From the NCBI GenBank assembly GCA_963749415.1, contig CAVVMG010000001.1:300367-364366 (forward strand): a stretch of 64,000 nucleotides of DNA, read 5' to 3'. Shown here piece by piece: positions 8,010 to 16,770 of the stretch; within the stretch, counting starts at the first letter, position 1; every line of letters starts with the position of its first letter. A model generated the notes under the pieces. The model was not told the origin of the DNA and made no database searches. It worked only from the letters and a program-made list of their open reading frames with translations. The DNA is from an uncultured Acidobacteriota bacterium (GTDB lineage Bacteria; Actinomycetota; Acidimicrobiia; Spongiisociales; ZC4RG35). The position numbers and the translations under genes were made by a program.

Positions 8010-8411
8010 TCATGCGGCGACCAGTCGGAGGTCGGAAACGGCTGCGATCCGGATGAAATCGGAGTCCGCCGCCAGCAATGGCACATCCTTCCCCATCGCA
8101 ACCGCCGCGATCAACAAGTCGTGGCTGTTTGCCGGGGTGAACCCCGCCCGCCGGCAGCGGTGATAGAGGTCGGCGGCGACCTCGTAGTCGAACAGGGGGC
8201 GGGTGGGCAACATCGTGCACCAGTTCATGGTCGCCCATATCTTGTCCTGCGCCTGTCGGGTGGTAGCCCCCTCGAGCAGCTCCATGATCACGACATCGGT
8301 GGTGGCCACACGCCTACCGGACTGCAGCCATTTCCTCAAAGCGACATTCGTCTCGGATCCGGTTCGCCGCAAGTACTCCACCCACGCCGAGGTGTCCACG
8401 AGGACGGTCAC
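8010..8411 (-). CDS. vapC: PIN-domain toxin VapC
   Basis: [20 protein letters not shown]...MELLEGA...[22 protein letters not shown] is a PIN fold with its acidic residues. The GTG start overlaps the vapB stop (GTGA). Confidence 0.8.
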
Positions 8412-8626
8412 TCGATCTCCTCGATGACCACCACTCCCCCGCGAATCTCGGCGAGATCGCCATCCCAACCGGCCCCCTCCATGGCCAGCACGTCCTCCCT
8501 GGTGAAAACAGTGCCCACCATCCGACGCAGGGCGAGGTCGACCGCCTCTTTCTTGGTCTTCAGGCCGTAGCGCTCCATGACCTTCCCCACGAGTTGATCG
8601 TCGATGTCGATGTTCGTCCTGCCCAT
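8408..8626 (-). CDS. vapB: VapB-family antitoxin (ribbon-helix-helix, [10 protein letters not shown] type)
   Basis: [38 protein letters not shown].. is the type II antitoxin family found with VapC. Longer alternative start at 8644. Confidence 0.75.
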
Positions 8627-8661
8627 ATACACCATCATACACATCGAGGTGTATGGATTCG

Positions 8662-11538
8662 TCAGCCGAAGCGGGGAGCCATTGCCTCCACGGAGCCGGC
8701 GATCGTGTTGCGGGCCTCGTCGATGAGTCGCTGCGCCTCCTCCACAAAGCGCTGGTACTCGGAGAGGTTCCCGTCGCGTAGGGCATCATCGGCGTTGGCG
8801 AAGGCTTCGGCGGCCTGATCCAACAATTCTTCGACCGTTCCCCCACCCGGTGTCGGCCCCGGTTCCGACGGCTCACCGTCTCCGAAAACCAGGTCGAGGG
8901 CGCCCTCCAAAGTGGAGGACCACTCCACCTGATCGCCGTAGACCACGATGACCCTCTGGAACTCGGGAAAGCCCCCACCTTCGGCCTGGAGGAAGATCGG
9001 CTGGACATAGATCACCGATCCCTCGATCGGCACCACCAGCATGTCCCCCTTGATCACCTGCGACCCCACGTTGTTCCACAACGTGAACTGCTGGGAGATC
9101 GTGGGATCCTGCTCGATCCGTTGCCCGACCTGCTCGGTGCCGTCGACCAGCTCCCCCTGGGGCATTCGAAAGTCGATGAGCCGCCCGTAGCGGCCGGGCG
9201 TCGAATCGGCCACCAGAAAACTGGCCATGTTCTTCTTGGTGGAGGGGGTGAACGGTTGGAGCAGGAGATAGGAGAGGTCGGTCTCCCCCGGGATCGTCGT
9301 CAACAGGTAATACGGGAGGATGTCTCTGAGATACTCGACTGTCCCTTGGAGCGCGTCATCACCACGCAAGAGCTCTGCGCCCGCGCTCTGACCCCGGGAA
9401 ATAGTCGAGGGATCCAACGGGAGATCCCACTGGTCGTTGCCGGAGAAGAGCTCGGCGAAGTCGGTGACGTGGTACTCGAGGTAGAGCTCCCCCTGGACCC
9501 GGAACAGGTCCTGGGGGTAGCGGAGATGCTCGACCAATCCCTCTGGCATCTCCGAAGCCGGCTTGAGCATGCCCGGGTAGACCTGTGACCACGCCCGGGC
9601 TATGGGGTCGCTGGGGTCGTGGAGATAGAAGGTGACATCCCCGTCGTAGGCGTCAATCACGGCCTTGACCGAGTTGCGCATGTAGTTGACCCCCGGGTCC
9701 AGCGACGTGGAAACGGGAAGTCGGCCAACCGAGCCCGGGGTTAGGGGTTGCGAGTACGGGTAATGGGTCGAGGCCGTGTAAAGGTCGAGCACCCAGAGGA
9801 TCCGGCCGTCCATGATCACCGGGTAGGGGTCGGTGTCGACGTGGAGGAACGGGGCGAGGTTGGCCACGATCTGGCGGATGTTTCGCTCCACCAGCACCTT
9901 GCTCTCCGGCTTGATCTCACCGGAGATCAACAGGTTGAGGTCGCGGTAGCGGAATGCGAATGCGATCCGCTCCCAGATGCTGCTCAGCCTCACTCCCGCG
10001 GTCCCATCGTATGAGTTGAAGGCCGTGCCCTCCCCCTCCGAGGGATAGTCGATCTCCTGAGGCTCGTCACCCGTGACCACGATCACCGGGCGCCCCGGCT
10101 CGTAGGTCTCGCCGAAATAGACCCGGGGCTGTTCCAGCTCGAGCTGATCCACGGATGCCACAGGAGGGACGTCCTGGAGCAGGAATTGGGGCTGCCCGTC
10201 CTCCTGCACCACGGCTGCGGCATTGGCGACCGCCCCCACGCCGTGGGTGTAGATCAGGCGCTGGTTCTCCCAGTCATCGCGGGGCAGCTCGAGCTCCTCG
10301 AGCTCACGAACCGCGAGCATCACCTGGCGAGGCGTTCCCTCGTCGAGATAGCGGTCGGTATCGACGACTCCGAGGTTGTAATAGGGACGGAGCTCCTGGA
10401 AGTTCTGATAGGTGCTGGGGAGGACCGAGGGCGCCCAGATCCTGAGGTTCTCCATCGTCAGCTGGTTGGCCTCGATGTCCTCCGTCGTCAGATCGTCGGC
10501 CGCGGCAAAGGGGCGGACATCGACTTGATCGAAACCCCACGCGGCGCGGGTGAACTGCAGGTTGTTCTCCAGGTAGGGGGCCTCCTTGTCCTGGGGGTCA
10601 GGCGCTACCTGGAATCGCTGCACGATAAGGGGATAGATCACGGCTGCGGCCAGGGCGACGACGACCCACGACCCGACCGCCACCCCGGCGAGGATCCAGC
10701 CCTGGCGGAAGATGTTGACGATGAACAGGACCGCGGCGACCAAAGCCACCAGGATCAGCAGCCGGTACGCCGGTAGCCGGGCCGTGATGTCGGTGAAGCC
10801 CGGGCCGAAAAAGTTGTTCCGGTCCGAGAGCAAGAGCTCGTACATGTCCAGCCGATAGACCGCAGCACGCACCAGGGCGATCAGAGCCAAGAGCACCGAG
10901 ACGTGGATCTTGGGGCCCCGGGCCACCGCGAACCGCCGCCCGTTGAAGCGGATGCCGCCGTTGAAGTAGTGGGAGACGACCACCACGATGATGGTCAGGA
11001 CCAGAGCGTTGAAGACCCAGTCGGCGATGTCAGCCCACAACGGCAACCGGAACACGAAGAAGCCGATGTCCTGGCCGAAGAAGGGAGCTTCAACCCCGAA
11101 TTCCTGGGCCTTGATGAACAGGAACACATCCTCCCGCCATGAGGCGACGGCCAGCCCGAGCAACAGGGCGAGGAACCCGGTGACCCAGAGTCGGACCTGG
11201 CGTGCCCTGGGCTCGATCCATTCCCGGAACCTCTCGATCAACTCCTCTTCCTCCGAGAGGTCGAATGGAGCCCAACGCGGGGAGAGGCGATCGGCGATCC
11301 GGAGGTTGACCCAGAGCAGGATGAACGACACTGCGATCCCGATCACCCCGAGAAGGATCGACATGCCCCATTTCCGTTGCCAGACCTCGGAGTAGCCGAT
11401 GGAATCGAACCAGAGGTAGTCGGTCCACAGCGTGCCGAGGGCGGTCAGCGCCAGGTAGAGGACGGCACCGATGACCAGGACGATCGTGAGCGGGCGGCGC
11501 CGATCGGTCGGGTAGTCCGCGGGCGCCCGGGTGAACAT
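8662..11538 (-). CDS. UPF0182 family membrane protein (about 958 aa)
   Basis: An N-terminal polytopic region (..[16 protein letters not shown]..) and a large extracytoplasmic domain, conserved along the whole length with actinobacterial UPF0182 proteins. Confidence 0.85.
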
Positions 11539-11592: not shown

Positions 11593-13398
11593 TCAGACTG
11601 CGACCAGGGTGCACCCGCACCCGGCGTGGATGGGCGGGAGATTCGCGGCCGGCTCGGACGAAGCCTCACTGCAAGCCGAACAGGGGGTGCCGGCGGAAAC
11701 CCATTCCAATCGAGCGTCTGCACCCACCGATTCTGTGATCCCGCTGTGATACCCACGCAGAGCCAGCTCCCGGATCCTTCGCTCCGCCTCATCGGAGCGC
11801 CAACCCCTGAACACCCGGGAGGCTGCGGACTGCCTCTCCCGAAGACCGGTGCCGGCCTCGGTCAGCGCCCCATCGATCGCATTGGCCAACGCGGCGCCGA
11901 AATCGTCTGCCGCGTCCGAGTGCGGAGTGTCTGGCCGCTTCAGCCGCTCCCCCGTCATCTCCTCGGCCACTGCATGTCCCGCGGCATAGCTCTCGGCCCA
12001 CAACCCGATCAGGTCGGCGCGCATGGTGTCTGCCAAGCTCTTCTCGTCCGGGCCCCAGCTCTCGTCGGTGCGCAGGCTGTCGAGGGCCACGTTCTGCGCC
12101 TCGGTCACGGCCTTCTTCACCCCGCGGAGGGCGCGATTGCTGATCGGCAGGAGCCGGACCTCCCTCTCCTCGATCCACCCCGTCGTCTCCGCGTCGGAGG
12201 ACTCGCTGTCCGCCATTTCCTCGGCCACCGCGGGCAGCGGCGACGGCTCGGGGCTCACGCCGTCTCCTGGCTCCGAGCCGCGCAGGGATGCGAAGAGGGC
12301 CCCAACGTCGTCTGCCCGGGGCTGGGCCCAAGTCGGCACGTCATGACTGTCGGGGGCGGATTCCTCCTCCGGAGCAGTCTCCTCGGGGATGATCTCGACC
12401 TCCGGCTGGATAGTCGCCTCGTCGGGCTCACCTAGCTCGATCGGGGCCGGTTCGGGCGTTGGCTCGGGCTCGGAACGCTGTTTGATCCTGGCCACGTCGT
12501 CGGCGACCTCGTCGGCGAGGGGCTCCGGTCCTTCACCCCCACCCGGCTGACCCCGCTGGATCACTCGCACCGTTTCTCCGGGCTCCCAGGTCAAAGGCGG
12601 GGATTCCGGCTCACGGCGGGTGCCGATCACCCGAACGCTGCTTGTCGGCTCCGGTAGGTGCTCGATGCCCTCCCTCCGCTCTTCGAGCGTCGTCTCCAGC
12701 CGGGTCAGTGTGGCGCGGGCGTGCTCCAACTCCTCTAGGAGCTCCTCACGACGCTCCTCCAAAGCCCGGGTTCGCTCCTGGGCGGCCTCGGCGGCCCGAT
12801 GGGCCTGTTCGATGATCTCGTCATGCCGTTTCGTGGCCTGAGAGGACATCTTCTCTGCATCCATGCTCGCTACACGGATGGCCTCTTCGGACTCGCGGCG
12901 CGCCGCCGAGGTGAGCCGATGCGCTTCGCGCTCGGCCTCTCCCATCACCGTGAGCACATCACGCTCCGCGTTTTGGCGCAGCTGTCGGAGCTCGGCCAGC
13001 GTCTGGTTGAGGAGCTCGGTGCCGGTGGCCCAGGCATCACCACGCAGGGCCTCTGCGTCGCTGCGCGCCTCCTTCACCGTCGTCTCGGCTTCGGCCATCG
13101 ACTCCGCTCGCCACTGCGCGGCATCGAGGCTTGCCCTCTGCCTCATCGACTCGGCGGCTTCCCGGGCCGCCTGGAGCACCGAAGCCACTTCCCGCCCGAC
13201 GTTGTCGAATTCGGAGGCCAGGTCGCGGTCGGCGTACTCCCCGAGCCGGGCATTGAGGCGTTCCCTTTGCTCCCGAAGCTTCTCTATTTCTGCTGCGAGG
13301 GCCTCGATTCGTTGGGTCACCTCGCCCGGATCGAATCCTCTCAGGACCGTGCGGAACTGAGCGCGATAGATCTCCCCGGCAGCGACGTCAGGTTCCAT
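11593..13398 (-). CDS. DivIVA-domain protein with C-terminal phage Mu F-like (head-morphogenesis-type) zinc motif domain
   Basis: The N-terminus FRTVLRGFDPGEVTQRIEALAAEI plus a long coiled coil are DivIVA. There is an acidic/Pro-rich linker. The C-terminus ..RIRELALRGYHSGITESVGADARLEWVSAGTPCSACSEASSEPAANLPPIHAGCGCTLVAV matches the Phage_Mu_F pattern (..W.a..D.rtCp.C..ldG......PPlHpnCRCtlv). Confidence 0.7.
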   Translation of the reverse strand: MEPDVAAGEIYRAQFRTVLRGFDPGEVTQRIEALAAEIEKLREQRERLNARLGEYADRDLASEFDNVGREVASVLQAAREAAESMRQRASLDAAQWRAESMAEAETTVKEARSDAEALRGDAWATGTELLNQTLAELRQLRQNAERDVLTVMGEAEREAHRLTSAARRESEEAIRVASMDAEKMSSQATKRHDEIIEQAHRAAEAAQERTRALEERREELLEELEHARATLTRLETTLEERREGIEHLPEPTSSVRVIGTRREPESPPLTWEPGETVRVIQRGQPGGGEGPEPLADEVADDVARIKQRSEPEPTPEPAPIELGEPDEATIQPEVEIIPEETAPEEESAPDSHDVPTWAQPRADDVGALFASLRGSEPGDGVSPEPSPLPAVAEEMADSESSDAETTGWIEEREVRLLPISNRALRGVKKAVTEAQNVALDSLRTDESWGPDEKSLADTMRADLIGLWAESYAAGHAVAEEMTGERLKRPDTPHSDAADDFGAALANAIDGALTEAGTGLRERQSAASRVFRGWRSDEAERRIRELALRGYHSGITESVGADARLEWVSAGTPCSACSEASSEPAANLPPIHAGCGCTLVAV

Positions 13399-13443
13399 CT
13401 CCCATAGAAGATAACGACCGACCGGGGTTTCGTTGTGGTTTCG

Positions 13444-14457
13444 CTAGACGGCGCCGAGGTTTTCCAGGAAGTCGAGGGCCTCGTTGAAGTCGGCGATGGG
13501 GATGATCTCGATCGTGTCCCGCTCGGCGGTCAGCGCCTGTTCGTAGTTGCCTTCGGGGACGAGGATGTACTCGGCGCCGGCTGCCTCCGCCCCCACCACC
13601 TTCTGCCGAATACCTCCGATGCTGCCCACCGTGCCGTCGTACGAGATGGTGCCGGTTCCCGCGATCACGTGCCCTCCGGTGAGCTCACCCGGGGTGAGGG
13701 TGTCGACGATGGCCAAGGCGTGCATCATCCCCGCCGAAGGACCGCCCACGCTTCCGGCCTCGATGGTGAGAGGGAAAGGTGGCTCGGTCAGCTCGCCAAC
13801 CGTGATCCCGATCATCGCCCCTTCGGGATCGTCGGGTCGAGCTGCCAGCTCGACGTCGATCGTCTGCTCGGAGCCCTCCCTGGTTATTCCCATCACCACG
13901 ACATCACCTGGCGCATGGCCGGCCAGGGCATCGGTGAGATCGGTGCCGCTAACGATCTCCACACCGTCGAGGCTGTTCACAGCGTCGCCGATCTGCAGCA
14001 CCTCGGCGGATGGGGCGTCCTCCATGAGATCGGTGATCAGGACGTCGATGGGAACCATCTCGTATCCCAGGTGATCGAGTGCGACGGTTATCGCTCGCTG
14101 CGTCGAGTCGTCCATCTGAGCCAGGACGCGGCGCCGGTACGCGTCGTCTGACTCGTCGGGCCGGCGGAATGCCTCCTTGCGCACCAGGTCGATGGTGGGG
14201 TCCAGCCCTGCGATCAACGCCTCGAACACATTCACGTCCTGGCTGACGACGGTCAGCATCAACAACTCACCGTTGGGGGGGAAGACCTCGACTTGTTCGG
14301 CGACGACTGCATCGGCGGCGTCCGACACCGGTCCCGAAGAGAAGGCCAGAAACGGAAGCTCGACATTCCAGGCGGCCAGGGCGAGGGCACCCGCGACAAG
14401 GAGGCCACCTATGAGGTATAGGGGCCAAGAAGAGCCGCGTTCTGTCTCGTCTTCCAT
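13444..14457 (-). CDS. PDZ-domain Lon-like (S16) protease, YlbL/SepM-like
   Basis: An N-terminal TM, a PDZ (..VLQIGDAVNSLDGVEIVSGTDL..) and a Lon C-terminal proteolytic domain (..GGPSAGMMHALAIVDTL..GTGTISYDGTVGSIGGIRQKV..). Confidence 0.75.
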   Translation of the reverse strand: MEDETERGSSWPLYLIGGLLVAGALALAAWNVELPFLAFSSGPVSDAADAVVAEQVEVFPPNGELLMLTVVSQDVNVFEALIAGLDPTIDLVRKEAFRRPDESDDAYRRRVLAQMDDSTQRAITVALDHLGYEMVPIDVLITDLMEDAPSAEVLQIGDAVNSLDGVEIVSGTDLTDALAGHAPGDVVVMGITREGSEQTIDVELAARPDDPEGAMIGITVGELTEPPFPLTIEAGSVGGPSAGMMHALAIVDTLTPGELTGGHVIAGTGTISYDGTVGSIGGIRQKVVGAEAAGAEYILVPEGNYEQALTAERDTIEIIPIADFNEALDFLENLGAV

Positions 14458-15156: not shown

Positions 15157-15981
15157 TCAGGCGGTCTCCAACTCCTCACCAAGGTAGGCCTTGACCACAT
15201 TCGGGTCCGCCTGGACCTCGGCAGGGGTGCCGATCGCGATCGGTTTCCCGAAATCGACCACGAGGACCCGGTCGGCGATGTCCATGACCAGGCCCATGTC
15301 GTGCTCCACCAGGAGAACGGCGATCCCCAGCTCGTCCTGGACGTCGAGGATGAACCGGGCCATGTCCTCGGTCTCCTCCAGGTTCATCCCGGCCACCGGC
15401 TCGTCGAGCATCAGGAGCTCTGGGTCCATCGCCAGGGCACGACCCAGCTCGACCCGCTTTTGGATCCCGTAGGGGAGCAGCCCGACCGGGTATTTCCGCC
15501 ACTGCTCGATCTCGAGGAAGTCGATGATGCTCTCCACGACTTCGCGGTTTTCGATCTCCTCGCGCTTGGCCTTCCCCACCCACAGGCTCCCGGCGAGCCA
15601 CGAGGTCCTCATGCGTATGTGGCGGCCGGTCAGCAGGTTCTCGATGACCGTCATGTGGGGGAACAGAGCGATGTTCTGGAAGGTGCGAGCTATGCCGAGA
15701 GCGGCCGTCTGGTTGGGCTTGAGCCCCATGAGGCTCTCCCCTTTCCAGCGGATGTCACCCTGGTCGGGGTCGTAGACCTGGTTGATCGAGTTGAAGAGTG
15801 AGGTCTTGCCGGCGCCGTTGGGACCGATGATGGCGAACAACTCGCCATCGTCGACGTGGAAGGAGACGCCGGCGATCGCCTTTACGCCTTTGAACGAGAG
15901 ATGGATGTCGTCGACCTCCAACAGGTGCTCGTAGGCCTTCGAGTCGGTGGGATCGGCGCGCCGTTCCAGGAGCTTGCTCAC
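15157..15981 (-). CDS. livG: Branched-chain amino acid ABC transporter ATP-binding protein LivG
   Basis: Walker A GPNGAGKTSLFN, ..NPNVVKAYLGEE C-terminus. The GTG start overlaps the livF stop (GTGA). Confidence 0.85.
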   Translation of the reverse strand: MSKLLERRADPTDSKAYEHLLEVDDIHLSFKGVKAIAGVSFHVDDGELFAIIGPNGAGKTSLFNSINQVYDPDQGDIRWKGESLMGLKPNQTAALGIARTFQNIALFPHMTVIENLLTGRHIRMRTSWLAGSLWVGKAKREEIENREVVESIIDFLEIEQWRKYPVGLLPYGIQKRVELGRALAMDPELLMLDEPVAGMNLEETEDMARFILDVQDELGIAVLLVEHDMGLVMDIADRVLVVDFGKPIAIGTPAEVQADPNVVKAYLGEELETA

Positions 15982-16770
15982 GAGAGCCAACGCTTTCTGC
16001 GTTTGTAGTGCTTCACATCGCGGAACGATTTCTGCTCGCCGGTGGCGTGGAGCCCGAGGTAGAACTCCTTCACGTCCTCGTCCTTGAGGAGCCGTGCGGG
16101 ATCCCCGTCCATCACCATCTTCCCGGTCTCCATGATGTAGCCATGGTCGGCGATGGAGAGCGCCATCCGGGCGTTCTGCTCGATGAGGAGCACCGAGGTT
16201 CCCTGTTTGTTGATCTCGACGATCGTGCGCCGCACCTCCTGCACCAAACGCGGCGCCAGCCCGAGGGAGGGCTCGTCGAGGATCAGAAGCTTCGGGTCCT
16301 GCATGAGCGCCCGCCCGATGGCCAACATCTGCTGTTCTCCTCCAGACAGGTAGCCGGCCAGAGCGCTGCCCCTGTCCGCGAGCCTGGGGAACAGGCTCAT
16401 CACCCGTTCCCGGGACTCCTCGACCCGGCTGCCCGTCGCGGTTGGCGTAGGCACCGGCTCGCAGGTTGTCCTCGACTGTCATCTCGGCGAAGACCCGCCG
16501 CCCCTCCATCACCTGGCTTATCCCCCGCCGCACTCGGGCCGCCGGGTCTTCGTCGGTGATGTCGTAGTCGTCGAAGTGGATCTCGCCCTTGGTGATGTCT
16601 CCCTCGTGGACTTCGAGGAGACCGGTTATCGCCCGCAGAGTCGTCGTCTTCCCGGCGCCGTTGGCTCCGAGCAGGGCGACGATCTTGCCATCGGGCACCT
16701 CGAGCGAGATCCCGCGCAGCACCAATACCACGTCGTTGTAGACGACCTCGAGGTTCTCTACCGCCAGCAA
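15978..16770 (-). pseudogene. livF: Branched-chain amino acid ABC transporter ATP-binding protein LivF, frameshifted near 16425-16435
   Basis: The N-terminal half (MLAVENLEVVYNDVVLVLRGISLEVPDGKIVALLGANGAGKTTT..AYANRDGQ) and the C-terminal half (..RVEESRERVMSLFPRLADRGSALAGYLSGGEQQMLAIGRALM..) are in different frames. The shift is at a CC/GGG run. Confidence 0.8.

Follow-up and report, generated by a model that had tools for sequence, protein, structure and literature searches.

A DivIVA-domain protein with a predicted MuF-like C-terminal module, encoded between PDZ-Lon_C protease and UPF0182 genes in Acidimicrobiia

The window analysed here is a stretch of 64,000 nucleotides from contig CAVVMG010000001.1 (assembly GCA_963749415.1, positions 300,367 to 364,366), which belongs to a bacterium placed by GTDB in the class Acidimicrobiia. 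At 11593..13398 (-), the open reading frame (ORF) list of the window contains a complete gene with an ATG start, read as a single ORF of 601 amino acids (aa) plus stop. According to an AlphaFold2 (AF2) model of the full-length protein, built on 102 aligned relatives, the product is composed of a DivIVA N-terminal domain, a long helix, a disordered linker and a globular C-terminal module (hereafter the C-module), the predicted fold of which is that of the MuF proteins of phage heads. An earlier note, made from the letters of the window alone, had proposed a DivIVA domain fused to a Phage_Mu_F domain. We report here that the fusion is genuine, that the C-module is probably a divergent relative of the MuF domains and that the gene is the middle one of a conserved chromosomal three-gene cluster.

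The gene and its reading frame

The reading frame was compared in a set of 83 loci, 80 of them from different GTDB species and three from distant members of the family. In 68 of the 76 loci that hold both halves, the DivIVA domain and the C-module lie in one uninterrupted frame. A frame change was found in five others, all of which are 'MFD' long-read metagenome-assembled genomes (MAGs), and an internal stop in the remaining three. Furthermore, the partial proteins P0046, P0056, P0013 and P0016, which come from JGI and ENA assemblies, run in frame from the coiled coil or the linker into the C-module. As the frame is uninterrupted in such a majority of the loci and is read through in these partial proteins, it was concluded that the fusion of DivIVA and C-module is genuine and that the single ORF is the real state of the gene.

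The interrupted copies were also inspected. In a strain represented by a public assembly (98.8% identical; L001), the gene differs from that of the window by a single nucleotide (nt) inserted at gene nt 1141, and its ORF is split as a result; the public gene calls of this strain hold only a 221-aa C-terminal fragment and an antisense ORF. In two further loci, L002 and L003, the DivIVA frame continues into Arg-rich, out-of-frame sequence without meeting a stop. L003 is the same contig as L070 (contig_13297, 2.08 Mb, a long-read MAG), and on it the UPF0182, Lon_C and DivIVA-MuF genes are each called as several pieces. Since the frame runs on without a stop in L002 and L003, and since the neighbouring genes of L003 are broken as well, the splits point to indel errors in those assemblies; for L003/L070 they indicate that such errors are frequent and that gene lengths taken from that data set are untrustworthy.

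The closest database proteins measure 214-346 aa and are devoid of the DivIVA domain. Public annotations of related contigs place an ORF of 202 or 162 aa on the opposite strand of the DivIVA coiled coil (12799..13407 (+) in the window, 2851-3459 in L001 and 3088-3576 in L002), and what they call of the real gene is limited to its C-terminal 221 or 295 aa. These antisense and truncated calls are an annotation artefact, due to the high guanine-cytosine content and to 1-nt indels in long-read MAG assemblies.

DivIVA domain, long helix and linker

The DivIVA-type N-terminal domain (aa 1-59; 13222..13398 (-)) is modelled by AF2 as a short helix (aa 7-11), a beta-hairpin bearing the residues LRGFD (strand at aa 17-22) and the beginning of the coiled coil (helix at aa 24-56). 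The signature that had been noticed in the N-terminus, FRTVLRGFDPGEV, is indeed present, and a search with the DivIVA hidden Markov model of Pfam, PF05103, gave a match over aa 8-119 with an E-value of 1.5e-11 and 44.8 bits for a gathering threshold of 28 bits. The NCBIfam model of the DivIVA N-terminal domain (TIGR03544) scored 17.4, below its cut-off of 22, and the equivalog models of Wag31 (NF050102, 8.7 for a cut-off of 260) and GpsB (NF010725, 14.7 for 91) remained far below theirs.

The domain is followed by an uninterrupted helix from aa 60 to aa 238 (12685..13221 (-); predicted local distance difference test score (pLDDT) about 90-97), a stretch of about 180 aa without proline which presumably serves as a coiled-coil oligomerisation stalk. 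The coiled coil of about 230 aa expected from the letters thus appears in the model as this single long helix. In NCBIfam, its matches to Scy, SMC and FliH were weak and driven by composition.

In DivIVA proteins, the N-terminal domain binds negatively curved membrane at the poles and septum, and the coiled coil oligomerises. The window protein resembles DivIVA, Wag31 and GpsB by an N-terminal domain above the Pfam cut-off, by the xxRG[YF]DxxEV signature and by the long coiled-coil helix behind it; its relatives already bear the NCBI name 'DivIVA domain-containing protein'. It differs from them by its hairpin, which reads LRGFD and not FRGYD, the residues L20-R21 standing at the place of F17-R18 of Bacillus subtilis DivIVA. 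It is also far longer, as B. subtilis DivIVA has about 164 aa and Wag31 about 260 aa, and it carries a 160-aa disordered linker and a globular C-terminal domain of about 200 aa. We know of no characterised DivIVA member with such a linker and globular domain.

The linker itself (aa 239-398, about 160 aa; 12205..12684 (-)) is acidic and proline-rich, as had been read from the sequence: it contains 24% Asp/Glu and 16% Pro, its isoelectric point (pI) is 4.1, and it is predicted to be disordered, most of its residues having a pLDDT below 50. Its length and sequence vary among relatives. Two short AF2 helices (aa 295-308 and 363-372) are found inside this low-confidence region, together with two conserved motifs. 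The first, WEPGETVRVI (aa 271-280; 12559..12588 (-)), has its W271 kept in at least 90% of the 102 sequences and can be seen in P0013, P0016, P0039, P0046, P0048, P0053 and P0056. The second, DDVGALFASLRG (aa 363-374; 12277..12312 (-)), coincides with the predicted helix 363-372; in the alignments of 102 and 79 sequences, its F369 and L372 are invariant and its L368 and R373 are at least 90% conserved. Both motifs look like docking peptides, which would bind either a partner or the C-module of the same protein.

Anatomy of the C-terminal module

A conserved C-terminal domain is present as the earlier note had stated; its extent was underestimated there, the domain covering about 200 aa (aa 399-601) and not about 100. 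It is globular, with a pLDDT of about 97 in the full-length model. When aa 407-601 (195 aa, alignment A2) were modelled alone, AF2 returned a pLDDT of 92.5 and a predicted template modelling score (pTM) of 0.88, with four long helices (residues 2-36, 46-76, 90-109 and 113-152 of this model) and a small knuckle made of a beta-hairpin and a helix. Neither Pfam nor NCBIfam has a model for the C-module. It is acidic, with a pI of 4.8 and 34 Asp/Glu for 22 Lys/Arg.

The four-helix bundle corresponds to aa 399-558 (11725..12204 (-)). In it, K428, R531, W533 and R534 are invariant, and the motifs LLPIxNRALRGVKK and RVFRGWRxDEAERR stand out. The terminal knuckle (aa 559-601; 11596..11724 (-)) contains W566, C573-x2-C576, P588-P589 and H591-x2-C594-x-C596, the last of which is found 5 residues before the stop. 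The conserved Trp, the C-x2-C pair and the PP-x-H-x2-C-x-C ending that had been pointed out are all found in the terminal string EWVSAGTPCSACSE...PPIHAGCGCTLVAV at aa 565-601, which includes the C-x2-C and PPIHAGCGCT. C573, C576, C594 and C596 are the sole cysteines of the 601-aa protein and form two pairs, with H591 as a possible fifth ligand; in the 102 sequences, C576, P588, P589 and C594 reach a conservation of at least 90%. The natural reading of this pattern is a four-Cys structural zinc site, to which the His would be an optional extra.

Relationship of the C-terminal module to phage MuF proteins

The C-module model was compared by Foldseek with the BFVD database, a comparison of a predicted model with other predicted models. 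Ten matches were obtained at E<=1e-3 (best E 1e-4, probability 1.0, TMq 0.59-0.70), with alignments spanning about 200-290 columns. All the named matches among the top 50 were phage head or packaging proteins, mostly 'MuF-like', 'minor capsid protein' or 'head morphogenesis', and the rest of them included MuF fusions to portal, protease, ADP-ribosyltransferase and zeta-toxin domains. In the PDB, no structure gave an informative match to the C-module and a phmmer search of the PDB sequences was likewise empty. A tblastn search of 50,697 phage genomes with the last 82 aa gave no match.

The same class of proteins was reached by profile searches through the relatives of the window protein. P0100 matched phrog_595 (E 8e-7, over 153 residues), phrog_115 (1e-6), phrog_4728 (2e-6) and phrog_2662 (2e-5), and P0097 matched phrog_2662 (3e-6). 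The phrog_595 and phrog_2662 matches of these two proteins extend over about 150-160 residues and include helices 2-4. Against the PHROG families that contain gp7 of phage SPP1, the E-values of the relatives ranged from 2e-7 to 2e-5. As a control, SPP1 gp7 itself matched phrog_115 (1.5e-66), phrog_595 (1.8e-37), phrog_4728 (4.7e-24) and phrog_2662 (2e-16, profile positions 591-712), and Mu F matched phrog_595 and phrog_115 at the same profile positions as the family members. For the 79 full-length relatives, the PHROG families matched more than once were all of MuF type, the others being single matches of coiled-coil type. P0100 also matched PF25310 (VG15) with 21.9 bits and an E-value of 2.3e-4 over positions 35-189 of 212 (155 positions), which is below the 26-bit threshold; the window protein gave no PF25310 match, while the control, gp15 of mycobacteriophage L5, scored 83.9 bits. 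VG15 is the L5 gp15 family, and the member P0346 is named 'MuF-like minor capsid protein'.

When an alignment of 124 C-module sequences was aligned by hhalign with Mu F-like, gp7-like and VG15-like alignments, W566 was aligned with its MuF counterpart, the CxxC pair fell on the RxxH of MuF and PPxHxxCxC on its ...NCRC. The C-module and the phage domains (SPP1 gp7, Mu gpF of PF04233, L5 gp15 of PF25310) have in common a predicted fold of helical bundle and terminal knuckle, PHROG families matched at the same profile positions, and a W...(C/R)xx(C/H)...PPxHxxCxC pattern of the window family in register with W...RxxH...NCRC. They also differ in several respects. PF04233 does not recognise the C-module and PF25310 remains sub-threshold. 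The loop between the ligand pairs is short, without the GKxF...DxxF segment that gp7 and Mu F possess. MuF is usually placed at the N-terminus or forms a protein by itself, whereas the C-module is the very last part of a cellular protein; the window protein carries no toxin or protease domain; and its gene belongs to a chromosomal three-gene cluster instead of being immediately downstream of a portal gene (PMC5576092).

Several results weigh against a relationship with MuF. The earlier note had named the Phage_Mu_F score of the C-terminus as the test of its reading, and PF04233, at E<=10, matched neither the full protein nor aa 404-601 nor the last 79 aa; likewise, none of seven diverse C-modules matched it at E<=1 and none of the 79 full-length relatives at E<=0.01. 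The gathering threshold of this model is 29.6 bits, and the positive controls Mu F and SPP1 gp7 reached 111 and 114 bits. The C-module is thus not a member of Pfam Phage_Mu_F. The best PHROG match of the window protein, between its C-module and positions 551-707 of phrog_2662, the C-terminal MuF portion of that profile, has a weak E-value of 0.017, and because of this the sequence link of the window protein to MuF is a transitive one. The hhalign comparisons gave weak P-values from 0.09 to 7e-4 and probabilities of 0.6-26%; as the target alignments were shallow (Neff 2-4), these values are not taken as a negative result.

The variability of the Cys/His tail weighs against the explanation of the protein proposed below. 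The note had taken the Cys/His motif as a mark of the domain; in the family it is not universal. Among 136 family representatives, the complete CxxC+HxxCxC tail is present in 67 and CxxC+CxC in 18 (together 85), about 30 have partial ligand sets, and 15 end shortly after helix 4 without any Cys/His tail. In a tail-less clade (P0036-P0063, P0070-P0074 and others), the protein ends with ...AIxAYExGIExS right after helix 4, and in some other members the CxxC is kept but the His, or one Cys of the CxC, has been lost. Because a whole clade is without the tail and others have lost ligands, the knuckle cannot be essential to the core function of the family; it would be a decoration of an invariant helical-bundle core, and the putative zinc site is evolutionarily labile.

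These data leave room for an alternative, in which the C-module is unrelated to MuF and combines a helical bundle with a generic zinc ribbon; the PPxHxxCxC likeness would then be convergent. The absence of a PF04233 match and the modest hhalign probabilities would fit it, and so would the fact that several PHROG matches are confined to the last 40-60 residues. However, the BFVD matches are nearly all of the MuF class and not random helical proteins, with alignments of about 200-290 columns; in P0100 and P0097, helices 2-4 are included in the matches to phrog_595 and phrog_2662 (E 8e-7 to 2e-5); the VG15 match of P0100 spans 155 profile positions; and the recurrent PHROG families are exclusively of MuF type. 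We consider this alternative unlikely. By predicted fold and transitive profile similarity, the C-module can be assigned as a divergent MuF-superfamily domain and not a generic zinc ribbon, so that the MuF reading of the earlier note is retained at the level of fold and of the PHROG families shared with SPP1 gp7 and Mu F, and abandoned at the level of PF04233. We have high confidence in this assignment to the MuF superfamily combined with the anatomy described above. It is possible that the C-module is a domesticated phage domain.

Distribution of the family

An exhaustive hmmsearch with a 195-position C-module profile was run against 1.84 billion representatives of clusters at 50% identity. 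It returned 468 matches at E<=1e-3, 233 at E<=1e-10 and 125 at E<=1e-30. Most of the matched proteins are 550-870 aa long and end with the module, and their N-termini show F-x4-RG[YF]D-x2-EV; the Pfam DivIVA domain is found in 71 of the 79 full-length members. Their NCBI name is 'DivIVA domain-containing protein [Acidimicrobiia bacterium]', and in a genome scan with motif patterns specific to close relatives the closest genomes were without exception MAGs of Acidimicrobiia, with a highest identity of 93%. With 468 clusters at 50% identity and DivIVA in most of the full-length members, the architecture that had been described as unusual is the norm of a large family and not an oddity of this genome.

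Gene neighbourhood

Upstream of the gene, after a gap of 45 nt, lies that of a membrane-anchored PDZ and Lon_C protease of YlbL/DdcP-type architecture (13444..14457 (-); Pfam Lon_C, E 3.2e-10; PDZ_2, E 6.3e-10). Downstream, after a gap of 54 nt, is found the gene of a UPF0182 membrane protein (8662..11538 (-); PF03699, E 9.5e-254). No terminator-like site was detected between the three genes in the window. In the set of 83 loci, PDZ-Lon_C is upstream in 73, the contigs of the remaining ten ending before that position, and UPF0182 is downstream in 76, the exceptions again being contigs that end too early. The order PDZ-Lon_C, DivIVA-MuF gene, UPF0182 on one strand is also kept in members that are 30-45% identical and have entirely different outer neighbours.

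In Actinobacteria, these two flanking genes are known as a pair with identical order and orientation, for instance Rv3194c/Rv3193c of Mycobacterium tuberculosis, the second of which belongs to the UPF0182 family; in contrast to that pair, the present lineage has the DivIVA-MuF-like gene between the two. No phage genes were found nearby, the further neighbours being BioY, ABC ATPases, VapBC and infA. The Pfam matches of the neighbours and the related loci thus bear out the chromosomal, non-prophage setting between UPF0182 and a PDZ protease that had been proposed for the gene. UPF0182 has been reported to be universal in Actinobacteria, with 7 transmembrane (TM) helices and a periplasmic dome, and to be tied phenotypically to FtsH and YccA, with which it is proposed to act in membrane-protein quality control (bioRxiv 10.1101/2025.11.14.688347). 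Among proteases of the TM-PDZ-Lon type, YlbL of B. subtilis degrades the division inhibitor YneA (PMC6051672).

Two ORFs of the outer flanks deserve a comment. The 332-aa ORF at 8010..9008 (-) is over-extended, and its C-terminal 130 aa or so alone resemble a PIN-domain VapC toxin; a VapB antitoxin gene is called just upstream of the VapC-like part in L001 (7615-8249), and the VapBC pair is absent from the other contexts examined. The 537-aa ORF at 15157..16770 (-) seems to be two merged ABC-ATPase genes, which are separate genes of 276 and 277 aa in L002. Its middle part is Arg/Gly-rich and looks out of frame. The C-terminal half that the upstream ATPase should have, with its LSGGEQQ signature, lies in another frame (compare 15978..16454 (-)), which suggests a frameshift near 16450-16480.

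Proposed function

Taken together, these data are best explained by a DivIVA scaffold with a MuF-like docking domain, the clients of which would belong to a membrane-proteostasis module; we estimate the probability of this explanation as a whole at about 60%. By analogy with DivIVA proteins, the product would be a cytoplasmic scaffold, the N-terminal domain of which most likely binds negatively curved membrane at the poles or septum, and the helix of about 180 aa most likely forms a coiled-coil oligomer. The disordered acidic linker of about 160 aa, with its two conserved motifs, would tether the C-terminal domain of about 200 aa to this scaffold.

MuF domains are present in about one third of tailed phages, and their function was stated as unknown by Jamet et al. 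in 2017 (PMC5576092). The one MuF protein that has been characterised is SPP1 gp7, which docks onto the portal oligomer (PMC5576092). Because gp7 binds the portal oligomer, the MuF-like domain may be seen, by analogy, as a zinc-stabilised protein-docking module that would recruit a partner to the DivIVA scaffold. As the gene is co-oriented and tightly packed between the PDZ-Lon_C and UPF0182 genes, the most likely clients would be found in the membrane-proteostasis and cell-envelope module of PDZ-Lon and UPF0182; any specific partner is proposed tentatively, with the balance somewhat against it.

Two points weigh against clients of this kind. The grouping of the three genes into an operon is deduced only from their spacing and conservation. 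In addition, YlbL-type proteases have their PDZ and Lon domains outside the cytoplasm, and a cytoplasmic scaffold would therefore reach only their short N-terminal tail or the cytoplasmic faces of the TM proteins.

A broader proposal would be that the MuF fold is an ancient adaptor which docks onto ring- or dome-shaped oligomers, and that its copy on the DivIVA scaffold of Acidimicrobiia positions the UPF0182/FtsH and PDZ-Lon machinery at poles or septa. This proposal is speculative, and we regard it as rather unlikely.

The MuF-like domain might instead tether DNA or the nucleoid, which would make the protein a polar chromosome anchor. DivIVA proteins do anchor chromosome origins via adaptors, the module has the invariant basic residues K428, R531 and R534, and gp7 is called a DNA-binding protein in the title of a paper cited by PMC5576092. 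However, because the C-module is acidic overall (pI 4.8), DNA binding of the gp7 kind is unlikely for it, and the adjoining linker is strongly acidic as well; no DNA-binding family was matched in the Pfam and NCBIfam scans, and the conserved neighbours are membrane proteins and not segregation genes. A role as chromosome anchor is therefore judged quite improbable.

Very improbable, in our opinion, is a function of the protein against phages, as a domesticated phage part acting for instance as a decoy or sensor that would bind phage portal proteins at the cell pole. Portal binding is the sole characterised MuF activity (PMC5576092), and a VapBC toxin-antitoxin pair is located just downstream of UPF0182 in this genome; nevertheless, this pair is absent from the other contexts examined, and in 70 or more species the gene keeps its place in a fixed housekeeping triad while the outer flanks differ, whereas defence genes are usually patchy and located in variable islands.

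Finally, the idea that the 601-aa ORF is an artefact which joins a DivIVA gene and a separate gene of about 220-300 aa, although suggested by the 221-, 295- and 184-aa products of public annotations and by the frameshift at nt 1141 in the 98.8%-identical strain, is effectively refuted by the uninterrupted loci, by the restriction of the frame changes to 'MFD' MAGs, by the fragmentation of UPF0182 and Lon_C on L003, by the stop-free passage into Arg-rich sequence in the frameshifted contigs and by the in-frame partial proteins from other assemblies.

Significance

In the literature, no paper was found that links DivIVA with MuF or describes DivIVA proteins in Acidimicrobiia, and we found no earlier description of a conserved chromosomal MuF-like domain fused to DivIVA outside phage packaging modules. 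The public gene calls made here are frequently erroneous, as they contain antisense ORFs and cut the products short. As Pfam and NCBIfam leave the C-module of about 200 aa unannotated, it merits a family model of its own.

If the homology holds, the family allows the study of what the MuF fold binds, free of its phage context. A third, strictly syntenic component is also added to the PDZ-Lon/UPF0182 pair, the roles of which are only now emerging. Should the MuF fold prove to be an ancient adaptor, the present family would provide the MuF domain with its first function in cells and with a tractable model, and membrane-protein quality control would be spatially linked to cell division. The findings suggest that Acidimicrobiia may use a DivIVA-type scaffold to organise membrane proteostasis in space.

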